A DNA stretch of 63,785 nt, counting the filler, from Octopus bimaculoides (Eukaryota): NCBI RefSeq assembly GCF_001194135.2. It is 4 parts of 4 records of this genome, joined end to end, with 100 filler letters (N's around TTAATTAATTAA, not from the genome) between each part and the next. Parts side by side here need not be neighbours in the genome. Positions count along the whole stretch, not along the records: positions 1 to 24,692 come from NC_068994.1; positions 24,793 to 46,182 come from NC_068991.1; positions 46,283 to 54,661 come from NC_068999.1; 1 more part is not named here. One strand, 5' to 3'. The notes below the pieces were generated by a model. It searched no databases. It was not told the DNA's origin and worked only from the letters and a program-made list of their open reading frames with translations. Position numbers and translations under genes: made by a program. Of the stretch, positions 6,735 through 54,660 are shown one piece after another. Position 1 is the stretch's first letter. Each line of letters begins with the position of its first letter.

Positions 6735-6790
6735 ATCTTACAGCTGTTTCTGGGATACCCCCGAGTATGGGATATTCCATCATCAGAGAC
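6735..6790 (-). ncRNA. Minimal type-I hammerhead ribozyme motif (near-intact core)
   Basis: Minus strand reads GUCU-CUGAUGA-[UGGAAUAUCCC...GGGGUAUCCCA stem II]-GAAA-CAGCUG-UA-AGAU. Palindromic stem III ACAGCUGU, GUA cleavage triplet, 4-bp stem I. A second copy at 40909-40956 supports the GUCU/AGAC stem. Confidence 0.65.
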
Positions 6791-7649
6791 AATTTGGGAG
6801 GAAAATATAGCAGTACGTATAAAAGATTATGTAGGTCCGTACAATAATTAACATATTAATGAAGTTACCTTCAGTCATCTTGTCAGACATCTTAAAATTA
6901 TGATCTTGGAGCATAGGGAGTATCCAGTAAACATTTTGAGAAATGCTAGAGTGCAGGTATCAGAGTTATAAATTATATGTATCTGTGCGTGTGTATGCAT
7001 ATGTATCTGTGTATGTTTATATGTATATTTATATTTTATATATACGAATATATATGTATATATGTGTGTATCTCTCTGTGTATAGTTATAAATGCAGACG
7101 CACACACAAGCATACACACGTATCGATTAAGTCTAGTCACCGCAGGACTTACGCAATGTGTGTACATTGGTGAACGAATGATGGGAATGAGTAAATAAGC
7201 GAGAGAAAGAGATGAGATTAGAGAGTGGGAGTTTAGCGTGAACGAAAATGGAGTAAAGGATAGAGAAGAAAGAACGAAAGGTAGAAAGAAAGAAAGATTG
7301 AATGAAAGAAAGAAAGAAAGAAAGACAGAGAGGGATGTGTGTTATAGTCCGTTACTTCCTGCTGCGATATTATCATCAACTATTGTAAAGAATTTCACTT
7401 GTAAGCTTCTGTGTGTGTGTGTGTGTGTGTGTGTGTGTGTGTGTGTGTGTACTTCTCTTTCCCTCTCTCTCTATCTTTCTCACTTTCAGTGTGTTTCTCT
7501 GAGTGCGCGTGTGTGTGTGTATGCTTGTGTGTGTGTGTGTGTGTGTGTGTGTGAGTGTGTGTCCATTTCTGTCCGTTTCTGTCCATTTGTGTGCATTAAT
7601 ATGAACCATCAGCGTTTCTCTAAGACACAGAATCAACACAAATAAATCA

Positions 7650-8465
7650 TGATTACACTATTGCTCTTTCGCTCTTTCTTTCCTTTCCTCTCTCTCTCTC
7701 TTTCTTTCTCTCTCTCTTCCTCTTTCTTTCCCTTTCTCTCTATCGTTCTTTTTCATCTCCCTCTGTCGCTCTCTCTCTTTTTCTCTCTCTCCATTGTTCC
7801 CTCCGCTTTCCTTTCTCTCTATCACTCTCTCTCTATCACCCTCTCTCTCTTTCTTTGTCTCTCTCTCTCTATCTCTCTCTCTCTTTGTCTCTCTCGTTCT
7901 TTCTCTCCCTCTCATCTTTCTTCTATGTTACCTTTATTTTTCTCTCTTTCCCTTCATCCATAGCACTTCATCCCTTTATCTCATTCTTTCCTCTATGACT
8001 TTCTTCCTCTCGATTGTCTCTCACTTTACACCCTCCATACCTCCCCCCACACACACACTCTCTCTCTCTTTCTCATTCTTCTTTTCCGTATTTTTCTCTA
8101 AACTTATCTCACCTTTCTCTCGATATCATCTTTTGCCTCTCTATTTCCACTCATCCTTCTACTACCTCGTCTCCCCCCTTCTCTCTCTCTCTCTCTCTCT
8201 CTCCCTTCTCTCTCCCCCTTCTCTCTCTCTCTCTCTCTCTCCCTTCTCTCCATCTCTCTCTCTCTCTCTCTCCTTTTGCCTTCCCGTATTTTCTCTAAAT
8301 ATGTCTTCTCTTTTCCGTCTCTTTCTAATTTTCTCTTACATTGCCTTCTCTCTCTATCTTTCTCCCTACTTATCACTCCCCCTCACTCTCTCTCTCTCTC
8401 TTTCTCCCTACTTCTCTCTCCCCCCTCTCTCTCTCTCTCTCACTATCTCTCTAACCCTTTCCCTC
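7650..8465. repeat. ~0.8-kb polypyrimidine (CT/CTT) tract
   Basis: Almost purely C/T on the plus strand. Confidence 0.9.
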
Positions 8466-8748
8466 TCCCAATGGACGACATCGACCAACACCGTCTTTAT
8501 TTAAACTATGGCCGTCACGTTACGCAATCGAAAGAGAAGCAGTCAGCAGAAAGGTTGGCAGAGAATGTTCCGGCGGGAACTTCGCTGATCAATTGAGCCA
8601 ACAAGCGAAACAGACATTTAGCCAGTAAATTTAATCTTCCTGTTAGATTGATAATTCAATAAAGCATATAAGCATGAGTAACTATAATAATAATAATAAT
8701 AATAATAAGAAGAAGAAGAAGAAGAAGAAGAAGAAGAAGAAGAATGAT

Positions 8749-8970
8749 AATCCTTTCTACTGGAGGCACAGGACCTCAAATTTGGCGGGGAAGGATTGTG
8801 AGTCGATTACATTGACCCCAGTGTTTTAATGGTACTTCATTTATCGACCACGGAAGGATGAAAGGCAAAGTCGACCTCGGCTGAATTTGAACTCAGAACG
8901 TAGCGACGGGCGATATACCGCTAAGCATTTCGTCCGGCACGCTAACAATTCTGCCAGCTAGTCGCCTTGA
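8749..8970 (-). mobile_element. tRNA-derived SINE family 1, full length
   Basis: Head GGCGACTAGCTGGCAGAATTGTTAGC with A-box-like and B-box GAGTTCAAATTC; at least ten related copies in the window. Confidence 0.85.
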
Positions 8971-10018
8971 TAATAATAATTTCAATTTGCACTTAAAACA
9001 TAAAGACGGACGAAATGCCGCTAAGCGTTGTCCGGCATGCTAATGACTCTGTCATTGGCATTGCACTGGAAGTGACTTTTGGTTTTGGTGAATGAGAAGA
9101 AAATAACAGAAAAGAGAGTAAATTTTTCCTTCTGAGCATTATGGACTGGCAAATGTACTTTTGATATTATCAAAATCCGATGTCGTCTCCTCCGCCATTT
9201 GTTTAATGTCTAAACTGAGTATTGTTGTTCTCCGTCTTCTTCCTTTCTCGTCTGCTTCTTCAGCTCTTCAGAGCACAAGTCCTTTATTGGTTTCTGCAAG
9301 TGCAGCTACAACAATTGGGCTTTTTTACTGCACACCCCATGTTCTATATCCGTTGTTTTTATTCTCTCAAATTTCTGCCCTAGCTCTGTCATCTTGGGTA
9401 GATACAAGAACCTACAAGTGCATTGCGACTTCATTGCTCGTTACTTAAGCATTTATTACCTGTCTATATTGCTTTATAAAAACCTCAACGAACCAGGGGC
9501 CAATGGTTCTTCTTATACCCCTTCACTGTCATCCTTGTAAAAATGCTGCTTATGAATGGGGCTTCACCAAATCCCACCTCTTTCTCTCTCCCTGTCGTTG
9601 CATCAGATCCTTGGTCTTAAAGGTCATACATTCGGTACTGTAGTCTGCCAGATCTTTCTTCAACTGATCCTTTGAAGGCACAAAGAAAACTCCCTTTCTT
9701 CATGAAACAAAGGTATGTCACTTCCTTTCCTTGTCCGCTGCTGAATAAATTATTTGCGCCATGAGATGGATTTTTATAATACAATTCTTTAATAGTTTAT
9801 TTAAGACTGGATTCTCTCCAAATTTGAAAATTCATTATTGGAAAGAATTTTGGCAAACAAGCCTACATTTCTGTATTATTCGATCAGTAAATTTTGTGTC
9901 TGTGCGTGTGTGTCATTGTTATTGCTGCCGCTATCTTCGTCGGCGTTGTTGTTGGTGCTGTTGTTGTTGTACCAAGCATGTTCCTGAAGCTATTCAGTAA
10001 GCTATTATTATTATATTA

Positions 10019-52834: not shown

Positions 52835-53515
52835 TTATTAAACCTGGCCTTCGAATTACCCTCTGTAAGGCCCACATATTTCTTCATCGAAAACCGTGTC
52901 CTTAGTGGATATAGAGTCCACAGTGGCTTCATAAATGATGGTCTCGGACATGCAAGCTCCATTTAGCGGGCACAAACTTTTATCCCTGCATGAACAGCTG
53001 GTTTCATTTTGTGGTTTTGTGTGTTGTGTGCAATTATATTTTTAAAATTAGTAGTTGAGCTGAAACTGATTTTTAAGTTATGTCTATTGAAGAGCTTTCT
53101 GTAACTATCGTTGACTGGAAAATGTCTATATATCAGTCCTAAGAAATACTTGCCTATATTAAAGGTCACTTCAGGCGTGTAGGGGGGTGGGTGAAACAGA
53201 TAGTTTTCCTATTCCTATGTTTTCTTTTCTTTATTATTGGACTGGTGGCAGGTGTATAGGTTATTTCCTTGTTAAATCCACTATCTTTTAGAGCCTTATT
53301 ATATACTGGAGCAATGCTATTAAAAATGTCCCTATCGGAGGAGAGGCTAAAAATTCTTTTGCTAATGTTTTTAACTAAATTTTTAAACACTATGGGGGGA
53401 TGGTAGGAACCCACATTAATATAACTAAGTCTATTGTTGGGCTTCCTACAAGGTTTATAAATATTCTTATATAGATCTAAGGATACATCTAGGAAATTGA
53501 CAACCCTCAGGTTGG
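52835..53515 (-). mobile_element. Penelope-like fragment (RT C-terminus, thumb, GIY-YIG), copy 2
   Basis: NLRVVNFLDVSLDL...YINVGSYHPP...FSLSSDRDIF...YNKALKDSGF; TFNIGKYFLGLIYRHFP; tail-to-tail with copy 1. Confidence 0.9.
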
Positions 53516-53740
53516 GGATCATATGATGGAGCAGGCATATGCGATCTTATTGGACTATTCCTACTTGAAACGTTGGGCAAGACTTTTCCTGACATATGCT
53601 TCGCCATTTACAAAGAAGATGCCCCAGCTTTAACGGCAAATACCAATGCACCAACACAGGATTGGTTTAGGAAGGACATTATCCAACTGATAAAAGGTTT
53701 AGGTCTTAGCATAACTACAGATACCAACCTTACTCCCTCC
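53515..53740 (+). mobile_element. Penelope-like RT core segment, inverted relative to its continuation
   Basis: GSYDGAGICDLIGLFLL (Penelope MGSYDGAEICELVG) and YKEDAPAL (degenerate YRDDGL)...RKDIIQLIKGLGLSITTDTNL. Confidence 0.8.
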
Positions 53741-53759
53741 CCTCACTTAGTGGTTATTC

Positions 53760-53912
53760 TAATAGCTCTTTTGTCTTAACAACAGTCAATCACACAGTAA
53801 TTTTCCCTTGTTTAACAGTCATATTCATAGCATTTTTTTGATAGCCTGATAACTAAAGAGATGCTGGCTTTCCGCCCCGACATCCGAAACTCAGAGTTTT
53901 ATCATGGCTATC
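53760..53912 (+). mobile_element. Penelope-type terminal repeat with hammerhead-like motif (family C, inverted partner)
   Basis: GAUAGCC-U-GAUAA-CUAAAGA-GAUGCUGG...CCGACAUC-CGAAA-CUCAGAG-UU-UUAUC-AU-GGCUAUC, with an extended stem I; core mutated to CUAAAGA. Confidence 0.55.
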
Positions 53913-54342
53913 AAATAATTGACCACAGGCACTTGGCTGAAACCCATAAATAAATAAAAAAATAAATAAATATATANNNNNNNNNNNNNNNNNNNNNNNN
54001 NNNNNNNNNNNNNNNNNNNNNNNNNNNNNNNNNNNNNNNNNNNNNNNNNNNNNNNNNNNNNNNNNNNNNNNNNNNNNNNNNNNNNNNNNNNNNNNNNNNN
54101 NNNNNNNNNNNNNNNNNNNNNNNNNNNNNNNNNNNNNNNNNNNNNNNNNNNNNNNNNNNNNNNNNNNNNNNNNNNNNNNNNNNNNNNNNNNNNNNNNNNN
54201 NNNNATATATATATATATATATACAAATATAGAAATATACATATATGCATAAAAATATAGAATTATATATATATATATTTGTTTTGCAAGATTTTTGATG
54301 TGAAATTGTGTGTTGAAACAAATGTTGTACTTGGGGATGGTT

Positions 54343-54660
54343 ATATTGCCAGTTTAGCCAACAAAAAACACACGCACTGTATATTTGGTGTTAATTTGCT
54401 TCAGCTTTATATTACATTACATTACATTAATCCTATTTCGGCTAGAGTTCTTTCGTCACACTTCTGTGACCTCATCAGTGGTCCTTTGCTTTCTTCTTTC
54501 TTATGTGTGTCTCACCTTGCTAACTATCAGCCATTTTGTATGGCTGATAAAAGAACTCTGGCCGAAATAGGATTAATGTAATATAATGTAATATAAAGCT
54601 GAAGCAAATTAACACCAAATATACAGTGCGTGTGTTTTTTATTGGTTAAACTGGCAATAT
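54343..54660. repeat. Fold-back element, ~110-bp arms
   Basis: 54343-54453 is the reverse complement of 54550-54660 with a few mismatches; ends at the scaffold edge. Confidence 0.88.
54440..54483 (-). ncRNA. Minimal hammerhead motif, family D
   Basis: GACCA-CUGAUGA-G-GUCACA-GAAG-UGUGAC-GAAA-GAAC-UC-UAGCC. Perfect core and 6-bp stem II; the partner arm (54550+) reads UGGCC, which restores stem I. Confidence 0.62.

Follow-up and report, generated by a model that had tools for sequence, protein, structure and literature searches.

Nine short stretches that read as minimal hammerhead ribozymes lie within 64 kb of Octopus bimaculoides DNA, which raises the question of whether they are genuine hammerheads and, if so, what kind of element carries them. 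"The window" below means the whole stretch of DNA that was analysed (63,785 nt, filler included).

Identification of the hammerhead motifs

All nine stretches listed by the earlier note were found at their positions and read as it described. Eight of them are real hammerhead-ribozyme sequences, each individually damaged, at the ends of repeated elements: seven are recognised by score and the eighth by homology, whereas the stretch at 38650–38688 is at chance level. Damage is present in every copy, a point not stressed earlier.

None of the nine passes a strict minimal type-I descriptor (intact CUGANGA, GAAA and UH, palindromic helix III, at least 4 uninterrupted pairs in helix II and at least 3 pairs in helix I). 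Using a purpose-built, mismatch-tolerant hammerhead score, expressed in bits and controlled with 14 block-wise dinucleotide shuffles, seven motifs take ranks 1–7 in the whole window (19.4–30.3 bits). The window has 7 sites of at least 18 bits, whereas the shuffles average 0.29 and never exceed 2; for sites of at least 12 bits the counts are 18 in the window and 7.8 in the shuffles. The Rfam hammerhead models gave no hammerhead among the 150 of 256 window matches listed, nor in the full match lists of two sub-regions; these models miss the hammerhead families of the window.

The core (CUGANGA/GAAA/UH) is intact in four copies (C3 at 6786−, 23694+, 52310− and 54478−), each of which carries a helix defect, and altered in the other five (23525−, 38682−, 40952−, 41850+ and 53853+); no intact copy exists among the nine. 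Helices I and II are present, with defects, in seven. Perfect helix-III palindromes occur in the 6786 and 40952 copies (self-duplex of −11.1 kcal/mol) and in the 23525 and 23694 copies (4 bp, −1.7 kcal/mol); that of the 53853 copy is near-perfect (−7.4 kcal/mol), and the 52310, 54478 and 38682 copies have none. A palindromic helix III is therefore assigned to motifs 1, 2, 3, 5 and 8, and also to motif 7 by the majority letter of its other copies. The earlier estimate of about five families holds, with five families plus the unconfirmed 38650 site, because the 6735 and 40909 copies have a common motif but unlike flanks.

The motifs and the repeats that carry them

Motif 1 (6735–6790, minus strand) is the type-I hammerhead with the highest score, showing an intact core, one mismatch in helix II, an 8-bp palindromic helix III and a predicted cut after 6739. 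The hammerhead-like core of motif 4 (38650–38688, minus strand) has the change U4C and a helix II of 4 bp, and is regarded as unconfirmed because its 12.8 bits lie in the shuffle range, helix I consists of 1 pair, helix III is not palindromic and a second copy is absent from the window. Motif 9 (54440–54483, minus strand) occupies the left arm of a fold-back unit (54343–54660; arms 96% identical, 3' ends outward); its core is intact, helix II has 6 bp, helix I is broken and helix III is not palindromic. The right arm contains the 3' half of the hammerhead only.

Motifs 2, 3 and 6 belong to one family (family B), about 150 nt long and extremely abundant in reads. In the fold-back unit at 23404–23787, two family-B arms meet at an (AAC/AAT)n tract, with their 3' ends pointing outward. 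Its left arm alone bears a 28-nt extension (23404–23431), agreeing by eye at 26/28 letters with the loose-end consensus of the family in run X24. Motif 2 (23485–23530, minus strand; predicted cut after 23490) has the core change A6C with helices I and II formed, and motif 3 (23688–23734, plus strand; predicted cut after 23729) has an intact core and a helix II without its closing pair. Motif 6 (41845–41887) is contained in a 5'-truncated copy at 41799–41940 (plus strand) and shows U4C and lacks 3 nt at the cut site. It scores 15.0 bits, inside the shuffle range, and was accepted as a hammerhead because it is homologous to the 23485 arm (86% identity over 138 nt).

This family-B copy lies head to head with the motif-5 element, beginning no more than about 20 nt from that element's inner end. 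The motif-5 element is the 3' part of a repeat family (40870–41781, minus strand), in which depth over overlapping contig pieces drops steeply from the 3' end inwards and no ORF was recognised on translation. Motif 5 (40909–40956, minus strand; predicted cut after 40913) carries U4C and G5A, with a perfect 7-bp helix II and an 8-bp palindromic helix III. Searches with Hydra queries and one Neptune-like query found no ORF beside motifs 1, 2/3/6, 5 or 9.

The Hydra-clade element around motifs 7 and 8

Motifs 7 and 8 flank broken reverse transcriptase (RT)-endonuclease pieces. These come from a Penelope-like element (PLE) of the Hydra clade that is close to Hydra-1_Obim. The left 3' end (52237–52407, minus strand) contains motif 7 (52248–52320), with an intact core, 8 bp in helix II, a helix-III palindrome altered once and a predicted cut after 52260. 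The right 3' end (53730–53921, plus strand; 79% identity to the left one) contains motif 8 (53840–53912), with the core change G5A, a long helix I and a predicted cut after 53898. Between them (52407–53733) lie scrambled ORF pieces of mixed orientation. A 141-aa frame at 52404 matches an RT-endonuclease protein (E 2e-24), and the profile built from 28 relatives of this frame placed five ORF pieces here (E 2e-36, 1e-29, 7e-22 and 1e-11), among them a linker-endonuclease piece extending to 52830 (plus strand), a thumb-linker-endonuclease piece (53515–52831, minus strand) and RT motifs (53516–53733, plus strand). Pfam gave no match on these short, decayed pieces. RT followed by a GIY-YIG-type endonuclease is present. 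In the thumb piece, 57/86 residues are identical to Hydra-1_Obim by hand count (PMC8557442, supplement), and identity to the best of 120 database relatives is 45%.

The whole copy (52237–53921) is scrambled and stop-rich, its hammerhead ends inverted with their 3' ends outward. A (TA)n tract (52204–52221) adjoins the motif-7 end; on the right, about 50 nt separate the copy from the next (TA)n, and family loose ends past 53921 enter TA-rich sequence in the reads. Read as one event, the unit would need several template jumps.

Further decayed Hydra pieces (19688–20077, 35995–36953 and 37438–38017) belong to families other than that of motifs 7 and 8. The piece at 35995–36953 (minus strand) covers thumb, linker and endonuclease (profile E 1e-16 and 3e-10), and no convincing hammerhead was found behind it. 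The endonuclease piece at 37438–38017 is part of a decayed PLE 3' end (37438–38433, plus strand) whose terminal part recurs inverted at 40698–40785 and which includes the 3' half of a further hammerhead (38298–38333; covariance model 15.2 bits, E 0.1, partial), overlooked by the earlier note. The CxCx5C linker is found in the 52404 frame and at 36.4 kb, and the endonuclease CxxC at 37.9 and 36.1 kb; CxH is decayed in the window, and the N-terminal ORF part, the place of the DKT and RWK motifs, is absent from it. The window holds no complete PLE (pLTR-ORF-pLTR), and no target-site duplication was found around its elements.

Hammerheads in metagenomic Hydra relatives

For comparison, 77 metagenomic loci of Hydra relatives were used. 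Their ORFs show DKT in 8/8 and RW[K/R] in 7/8 of those inspected, which also carry the CxCx5C, CxxC and CxH marks (CxH in 8/8). The strict descriptor gave 46 matches in the 77 loci, of which 44 are sense to the ORF, and none when each locus was shuffled 3 times. Within 500 nt behind the ORF, 36/59 eligible loci lacked a strict match, many of these being found with a relaxed descriptor. A covariance model built from 17 of the hammerheads gave 69 matches in 56 of the 77 loci (66 sense to the ORF). The hammerhead is located in a terminal repeat, ~65–300 nt behind the ORF, and L014, L042, L043, L048, L063 and L073 are among the relatives with direct terminal repeats (pLTR-ORF-pLTR). Two-sided, covarying changes occur in 11/12 and 10/11 helix pairs, counts biased toward the structure, since it was a pairing descriptor or a structure-fitted model that selected the sets.

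In the window, the covariance model ranks motif 8 first (E 0.004) and motif 7 second; motifs 1 and 3 reach only E 1.1 and 1.6, and motifs 2, 4, 5, 6 and 9 are absent from the match list. Helix-III palindromes identical to those of the window were found in L038 (motif 8), L063 (motifs 1 and 5), L037, behind a Neptune-like ORF (motifs 2 and 3), and also in Penelope-3_HM.

Other genomic copies in public reads

The read check covered the families of motifs 7/8, 5 and 2/3/6, with majority letters taken site by site and not as haplotypes. Among the matches listed, the site damaged in motif 8 (53855) has G5 in 88% and 92% of depth (X1, X4), that of motif 6 (41851) has U4 in 98%, 98% and 99% (X1, X14, X15), and that of motif 5 (40950) has G5 in 91%, 82% and 78% in other copies; family letters are therefore canonical at these three damaged core sites. 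Likewise among the matches listed, other copies keep the palindrome letter at 52262 in motif 7 (98%, 99%) and the 3 nt lost from motif 6. In RNA run X24, G5 at 40950 appears in only 55/193 reads. A loose-end consensus of the motif-5 family (23 contigs, X15) has C and not U at core position 4, so this family may have C there.

The summed depth in X1 is 307,000–540,000 over the bins of the Hydra end versus 2,600–26,000 over the ORF, as expected for 5'-truncated insertions. Over family B (41785–41932) it reaches 2.2–5.3 million in X1, ~10x the Hydra end there, 1.3–4.5 million in X14 and 0.4–1.6 million in X15; single listed contigs in X1 have depths of 44–83.

Origin of the motifs

The motifs are, very probably, mutated minimal type-I hammerheads of decayed PLEs: two flank broken Hydra-clade RT genes, the others are likely the 3' ends of further PLE families, and all are likely dead, 5'-truncated insertions. 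The proposed link to PLE terminal repeats is direct for the 52248/53840 pair (ORF pieces, relatives and reads) and goes by architecture for the others; motifs 1, 2/3/6, 5 and 9 are likely PLE 3' ends by motif shape, orientation, tail and depth gradient. Fold-backs with 3' ends outward occur at 23404–23787 (with a one-sided 28-nt tail), 52237–53921 and 54343–54660. The pattern described for PLEs and Hydra elements comprises inverted partners truncated at the 5' end, tails of 30–40 bp on one side and insertion at (TA)n (PMC8557442).

In an active element the hammerhead would lie in the terminal repeat, ~65–300 nt behind the ORF, as it does in the relatives. The RT-endonuclease would, as established for PLEs, nick AT-rich or microsatellite DNA and copy the RNA from near its 3' end. 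Most copies would stop early, multiplying the hammerhead end far above the ORF, in keeping with the read depth. A second, inverted and truncated copy may often arise in the same event, which would account for pairs placed back to back, their 3' ends facing outward, with a 30-nt tail on only one of the two sides. Structure and published PLE data suggest that two hammerheads of the source elements would dimerise through their palindromic helix III and cleave slowly in this form; the window copies have decayed since and are predicted not to cut.

Family B invites other readings. It could be a stand-alone, non-autonomous element of ~150–180 nt using a borrowed PLE enzyme and not the truncated end of a long PLE, which we consider unlikely, if conceivable. 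Its ~10-fold depth over the Hydra end in X1, the upstream loose ends that are almost all (TAA/CAA)n, the sharp 3' boundary at 41940 and two independent insertions in 57.6 kb fit such an element. However, summed depth is not copy number, a strong 3'-end excess is also found in the ORF-bearing Hydra family, the copy at 41799 ends short of the microsatellite, as expected of 5' truncation, and contigs and 150-nt reads break at that microsatellite, so that a longer upstream element would be invisible. It is improbable that such an ORF-less mini-element (at least tens of thousands of copies) parasitises PLE enzymes which can also link two unrelated RNA templates, placed back to back, within a single insertion (the motif-5/motif-6 unit, 40870–41940); summed depth and one junction are its support. 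If true, family B would be the PLE-driven equivalent of a SINE, and the inverted PLE partner would be copied from another RNA instead of arising as the first one folds back. LINE-mobilised SINEs have a sharp start and a microsatellite end, and on the minus strand family B shows both, starting at 41940. That it is an ordinary SINE/LINE tail ending in (GTT/ATT)n, its hammerhead look incidental, is nevertheless hardly credible: its majority letters give a full core, three helices and the palindrome, the motif form recurs behind the Neptune-like ORF in L037, the optional 28-nt extension sits at the sharp end, and the would-be tail is wholly missing from the copy at 41799.

Non-LTR retrozymes are short tandem repeats from which hammerheads excise monomers that circularise. 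Like the motifs, they have type-I topology and a palindromic helix III, and a 2026 preprint derives the animal ones from PLE terminal repeats (10.64898/2026.07.22.740005). Such an origin, raised in the earlier note as retrozyme-like elements, is highly improbable here: only 11 of 105 arrays have a period of at least 25, none of them head to tail over any motif, all motif pairs are inverted, and the RNA runs contain no head-to-tail joint among the joints listed. It is also very unlikely that some hammerheads are live and cut host transcripts reading through them. RNA from both strands does include family-like sequence (923 and 849 reads for the Hydra stretch and 4501 for 40860–41960, drawn from ~6% of each run), but only 13/923, 1/849 and 23/4501 are 99% alike to the window copies, and 72–94% continue into dissimilar sequence, the pattern expected of host transcripts running through other copies. 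At the predicted cut sites no pile-up of RNA ends was seen in three fragmented cDNA libraries, poor at showing such ends; the sole pile-up comprises 5 ends at 52511. For an anole PLE, mutating the hammerhead did not abolish insertion in vitro, and RNA-seq showed no ends at the cut site (PMC11167929).

Relation to known elements and significance

Decayed PLE hammerhead ends are a known arrangement, to which four or five hammerhead-bearing repeat families are added for octopus. The earlier note knew of no catalogue of these families, which is partly right: a sister family with a hammerhead, Hydra-1_Obim of O. bimaculoides, is in print (PMC8557442), the one octopus family of this kind in the literature searched. 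It shares with the motif 7/8 element the RT-thumb-linker-endonuclease order, the CxCx5C linker and the (TA)n flank. Both also have, in the 3' end, a type-I hammerhead in sense orientation, with CUGAAGA as its core, a helix II that begins GAUG and a helix-III palindrome around one unpaired A; the letters of helices I, II and III otherwise differ.

Animal genomes hold many variable families of minimal hammerheads, in most cases as lone truncated copies or as close pairs on opposite strands (PMC4209133), and a coral holds >6000 motifs in 16 families (PMC7229834). The metazoan PLE hammerheads resemble ours in type-I topology, long helix II, 4–6 bp helix I, the extra nucleotide after A9 and palindromic helix III, and likewise form many families per genome, with opposite-strand pairs 100–700 bp apart. 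Their cleavage was assayed (none as monomer, low as dimer); the available part of that source names neither molluscs nor octopus (PMC4209133). Animal non-LTR retrozymes also carry type-I hammerheads in non-coding, PLE-related repeats, but in head-to-tail units of 150–450 bp giving circular RNAs, whereas the octopus pairs are inverted and without an array (PMC7229834; 10.64898/2026.07.22.740005). PAc, the Poseidon PLE of the green anole, has a hammerhead in its terminal repeat, extension of both target strands and an optional 30–40 nt tail from two reverse-transcription start sites; it belongs to another clade and is active and biochemically studied (PMC11167929).

Nine motifs are met in 64 kb because truncated ends have a very high copy number, and their density gives no indication of a special locus. 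The 2026 octopus repeat annotation mentions no ribozymes in its main text and leaves most young SINE families unclassified (PMC13282606); the hammerhead motif could help to classify unclassified octopus repeats. The finding would gain weight if family B turned out to be a free mini-element or if head-to-head units of two families were frequent, because this would test how the inverted insertions of PLEs form.

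Hammerhead-like motifs in the window

The window has a GC content of 33%, contains 6183 N, and is rich in microsatellites and repeats. An earlier note had described nine minimal hammerhead-like motifs, and on re-reading the sequence all nine stretches are present as written there: 6735–6790(-) (motif 1), 23485–23530(-) (motif 2), 23688–23734(+) (motif 3), 38650–38688(-) (motif 4), 40909–40956(-) (motif 5), 41845–41887(+) (motif 6), 52248–52320(-) (motif 7), 53840–53912(+) (motif 8), and 54440–54483(-) (motif 9). None of the nine matches a strict minimal-hammerhead descriptor with an intact core. 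By a tolerant score, motifs 1, 7, 8, 5, 2, 9, and 3 occupy ranks 1–7 of the window (30.3–19.4 bits), and sites reaching 18 bits average 0.29 in 14 shuffles of the window. Motif 6 is, by sequence comparison, a copy of motifs 2 and 3. The assignment stands for these motifs; motif 4 is an unconfirmed candidate, which scores at chance level and has neither helix I, nor a palindrome, nor a sibling in the window.

The copies show decay: the core is intact in four motifs, each of which has a helix defect. The A6C and U4C substitutions lower hammerhead activity in vitro, according to passages of PMC3088659. The window's copies are probably inactive.

No hammerhead is among the matches listed by an Rfam search of the window and two sub-regions, and many Rfam miRNA matches were rejected as microsatellites and fold-backs. 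Three further candidate hammerheads were not accepted: 5194–5250(+), a single-copy borderline site with a score of 16.3 and a model E of 0.7; 3235–3275(-); and 40356–40391(-), which is a fold-back's closing stem. A fold-back at 40272–40536 lies between (TA)n tracts, both arms contain only the 5' half of the hammerhead core, without GAAA, and its ends are similar to the motif-1 element's 3' end; it may represent another Penelope-like element (PLE) family.

The Hydra element and its relatives

Motifs 7 and 8 flank ORF pieces whose sole database match is an RT-endonuclease protein. Relatives of this protein show the features that mark the Hydra clade among PLEs and, in a representative-protein search, form a large family. 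With a Hydra profile, a linker-endonuclease piece is found at 52407–52830(+), a thumb-linker-endonuclease piece at 53515–52831(-), and RT motifs at 53516–53733(+), along with three other decayed Hydra pieces elsewhere in the window; Pfam gives no match on four Hydra pieces of the window. The RT and thumb pieces, adjacent in the protein, are mutually inverted here with their 5' ends joined, a geometry that would be expected of two priming events on one RNA. The pieces at 36–37 kb and 37.4–38.4 kb were rejected as one head-to-head unit, with ~240 nt of other sequence between them.

The thumb piece shares 57 of 86 residues (hand count) with Hydra-1_Obim, a published Octopus bimaculoides family, and its best database relative reaches 45%. 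This likeness to an octopus element in print suggests that the host is an octopus. Hydra-1_Obim and its hammerhead are listed in the supplement of PMC8557442 (files S1 and S2); the window's Hydra family is its sister and differs in the helix letters. The earlier note knew of no catalogue entry for the families, which has to be narrowed, since this sister and its hammerhead are already in print in those files; the window's own families are unnamed in the portions of the octopus and PLE literature searched, and Repbase, Dfam, subscription journals, preprint supplements, or the PMC13282606 library may contain them.

The relatives comprise 77 metagenomic loci encoding Hydra proteins (from the best 80 of 227 stretches). 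Matches to the strict descriptor number 46 in these loci and 0 in shuffles; 44 share the sense of the ORF, and most lie 65–300 nt behind or 170–215 nt before it (behind it in 23 of 59 eligible loci). A covariance model built on 17 motifs gives 69 matches in 56 of the 77 loci, 66 of them sense, and the hammerhead helices covary among Hydra relatives, in motif sets chosen for pairing. In the window the model places motif 8 first (E 0.004) and motif 7 second (E 0.03), picks up, at 38298 and behind a different Hydra piece, one half of a tenth motif (E 0.1), returns motifs 1 and 3 at E 1–2, and misses motifs 2, 4, 5, 6, and 9. In 33 of 54 Hydra-relative motifs (alignment A4, columns 15/58) helix II lacks its first pair, often with U-U there, and published Hydra rows show the same; the motif-5 family has A-G at this position (40925, 81%).

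Two or three hammerheads stand close behind the ORF in loci L070 (2257–2434), L003 (2373–2548), and L027 (2501–2962), and some of these hammerheads differ in type or lie on the other strand. Searches of the window with a Neptune-like ORF (L037) and 20 further ORFs of the loci that are likewise non-Hydra found nothing new.

Other copies in DNA and RNA reads

The runs listed as containing the sequence come from organisms coded A, B, and C; no RNA run is among them, which counts neither for nor against its presence in RNA. Reads were compared with 52230–53930 (Hydra unit) and 40860–41960, which holds the motif-5 family (repeat 40870–41781(-)) and family B, the abundant short repeat with motifs 2, 3, and 6. 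Over the Hydra unit, DNA contigs are at least 20-fold deeper on both hammerhead ends than over most ORF bins. Letters lost in the window are restored in other copies at the tested sites: among the differences listed, G5 makes up 88% and 92% of depth at 53855, and at 52262 the letter of the palindrome makes up 98% and 99%. Family B reaches a summed depth, which does not equal copy number, of 2.2–5.3 million in sequencing run X1, and is abundant also in runs of organisms B and C; in its other copies U4 makes up 98–99% of depth among the differences listed, and its loose ends have the three letters absent from motif 6. In the motif-5 family depth drops steeply from 3' to 5', G5 makes up 78–91% of depth among the differences listed, and one consensus of loose ends points to C in position 4 of the core. 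A 26-nt family-B pattern has no match in viral or prokaryotic genome contigs. Judged by eye against the promoter-box consensus, family B has B-box-like letters and lacks an A box at a suitable spacing, and a tRNA-type promoter was rejected.

In three raw RNA runs (about 6% of each read), family sequence occurs on both strands; reads with 99% likeness to the window copies number 13 of 923, 1 of 849, and 23 of 4501, and 72–94% pass into other sequence. No read-end pile-up is seen at predicted cut sites in these runs, a weak test of cleavage. The pattern fits read-through of other copies.

Architecture and proposed mechanism

Fold-backs with 3' ends outward are found at 23404–23787, 52237–53921, and 54343–54660. 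A 28-nt extension is confined to one arm of the first (23404–23431) and agrees with family-B loose ends. PMC8557442 describes a PLE pattern of inverted, truncated partner copies and of tails on one side, and a section of PMC11167929 ascribes the tail of an anole PLE to two reverse-transcription start sites. The earlier note had also offered retrozyme-like elements; no tandem array lies over any motif in the window, and the motifs are therefore very unlikely to be retrozymes. No convincing target-site duplication was found; the 9-mer shared by 40839 and 41955 consists only of A and T, roughly as chance would give.

The motif-5 element's inner end and the start of the motif-6 copy lie at most ~20 nt apart, forming a two-family unit of fold-back shape (n = 1). 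PLEs are reported to insert beside one another (in passages of PMC6765202). That family B is an ORF-less, very abundant, PLE-driven mini-element and that such a unit arises by two-template insertion is improbable.

Other features of the window

A transposase remnant with stops, which we take to be of Tc1/mariner type, was recognized by eye in translation at 51350–52100(+); it ends where a gap precedes the Hydra unit. At 48941–50440(+) lie frames that resemble an LTR-retrotransposon gag (DUF7041, E 5.5e-07) and a protease, interrupted by a gap. Frames resembling non-LTR RT remnants, presumably RTE-like and CR1-like, occupy 27331–27729(-) and 42476–43024(+), with no Pfam match. At least three dispersed SINE-like families have many copies: one at 4517–4851, 5047–5175, 11529–11718, 16374–16554, 33332–33470, and 56474–57086; another at 8747–8980, 10007–10136, 17210–17430, 20834–21257, 56122–56337, 60737–60913, and 62849–63460; and a third at 25132–25403, 35063–35252, and 42400–42575. 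The stretch 45466–45628 is a 164-bp palindrome (91%) that has short runs of telomere-like (CCCTAA) sequence close to its middle. The 100%-identical duplications across small gaps at 29837–30250 and 47908–48549 are likely assembly artefacts.

Proposed origin of the families

Minimal PLE hammerheads had no monomer activity and low dimer activity in the experiments excerpted from PMC4209133, and cleavage was dispensable for in-vitro insertion of the anole PLE in the assays quoted from PMC11167929. We infer that the ORF-less families are of PLE origin. PLE RNA would be copied by a target-primed mechanism, the inverted pairs would come from a single insertion event, and the hammerheads of the source elements would cleave as dimers.
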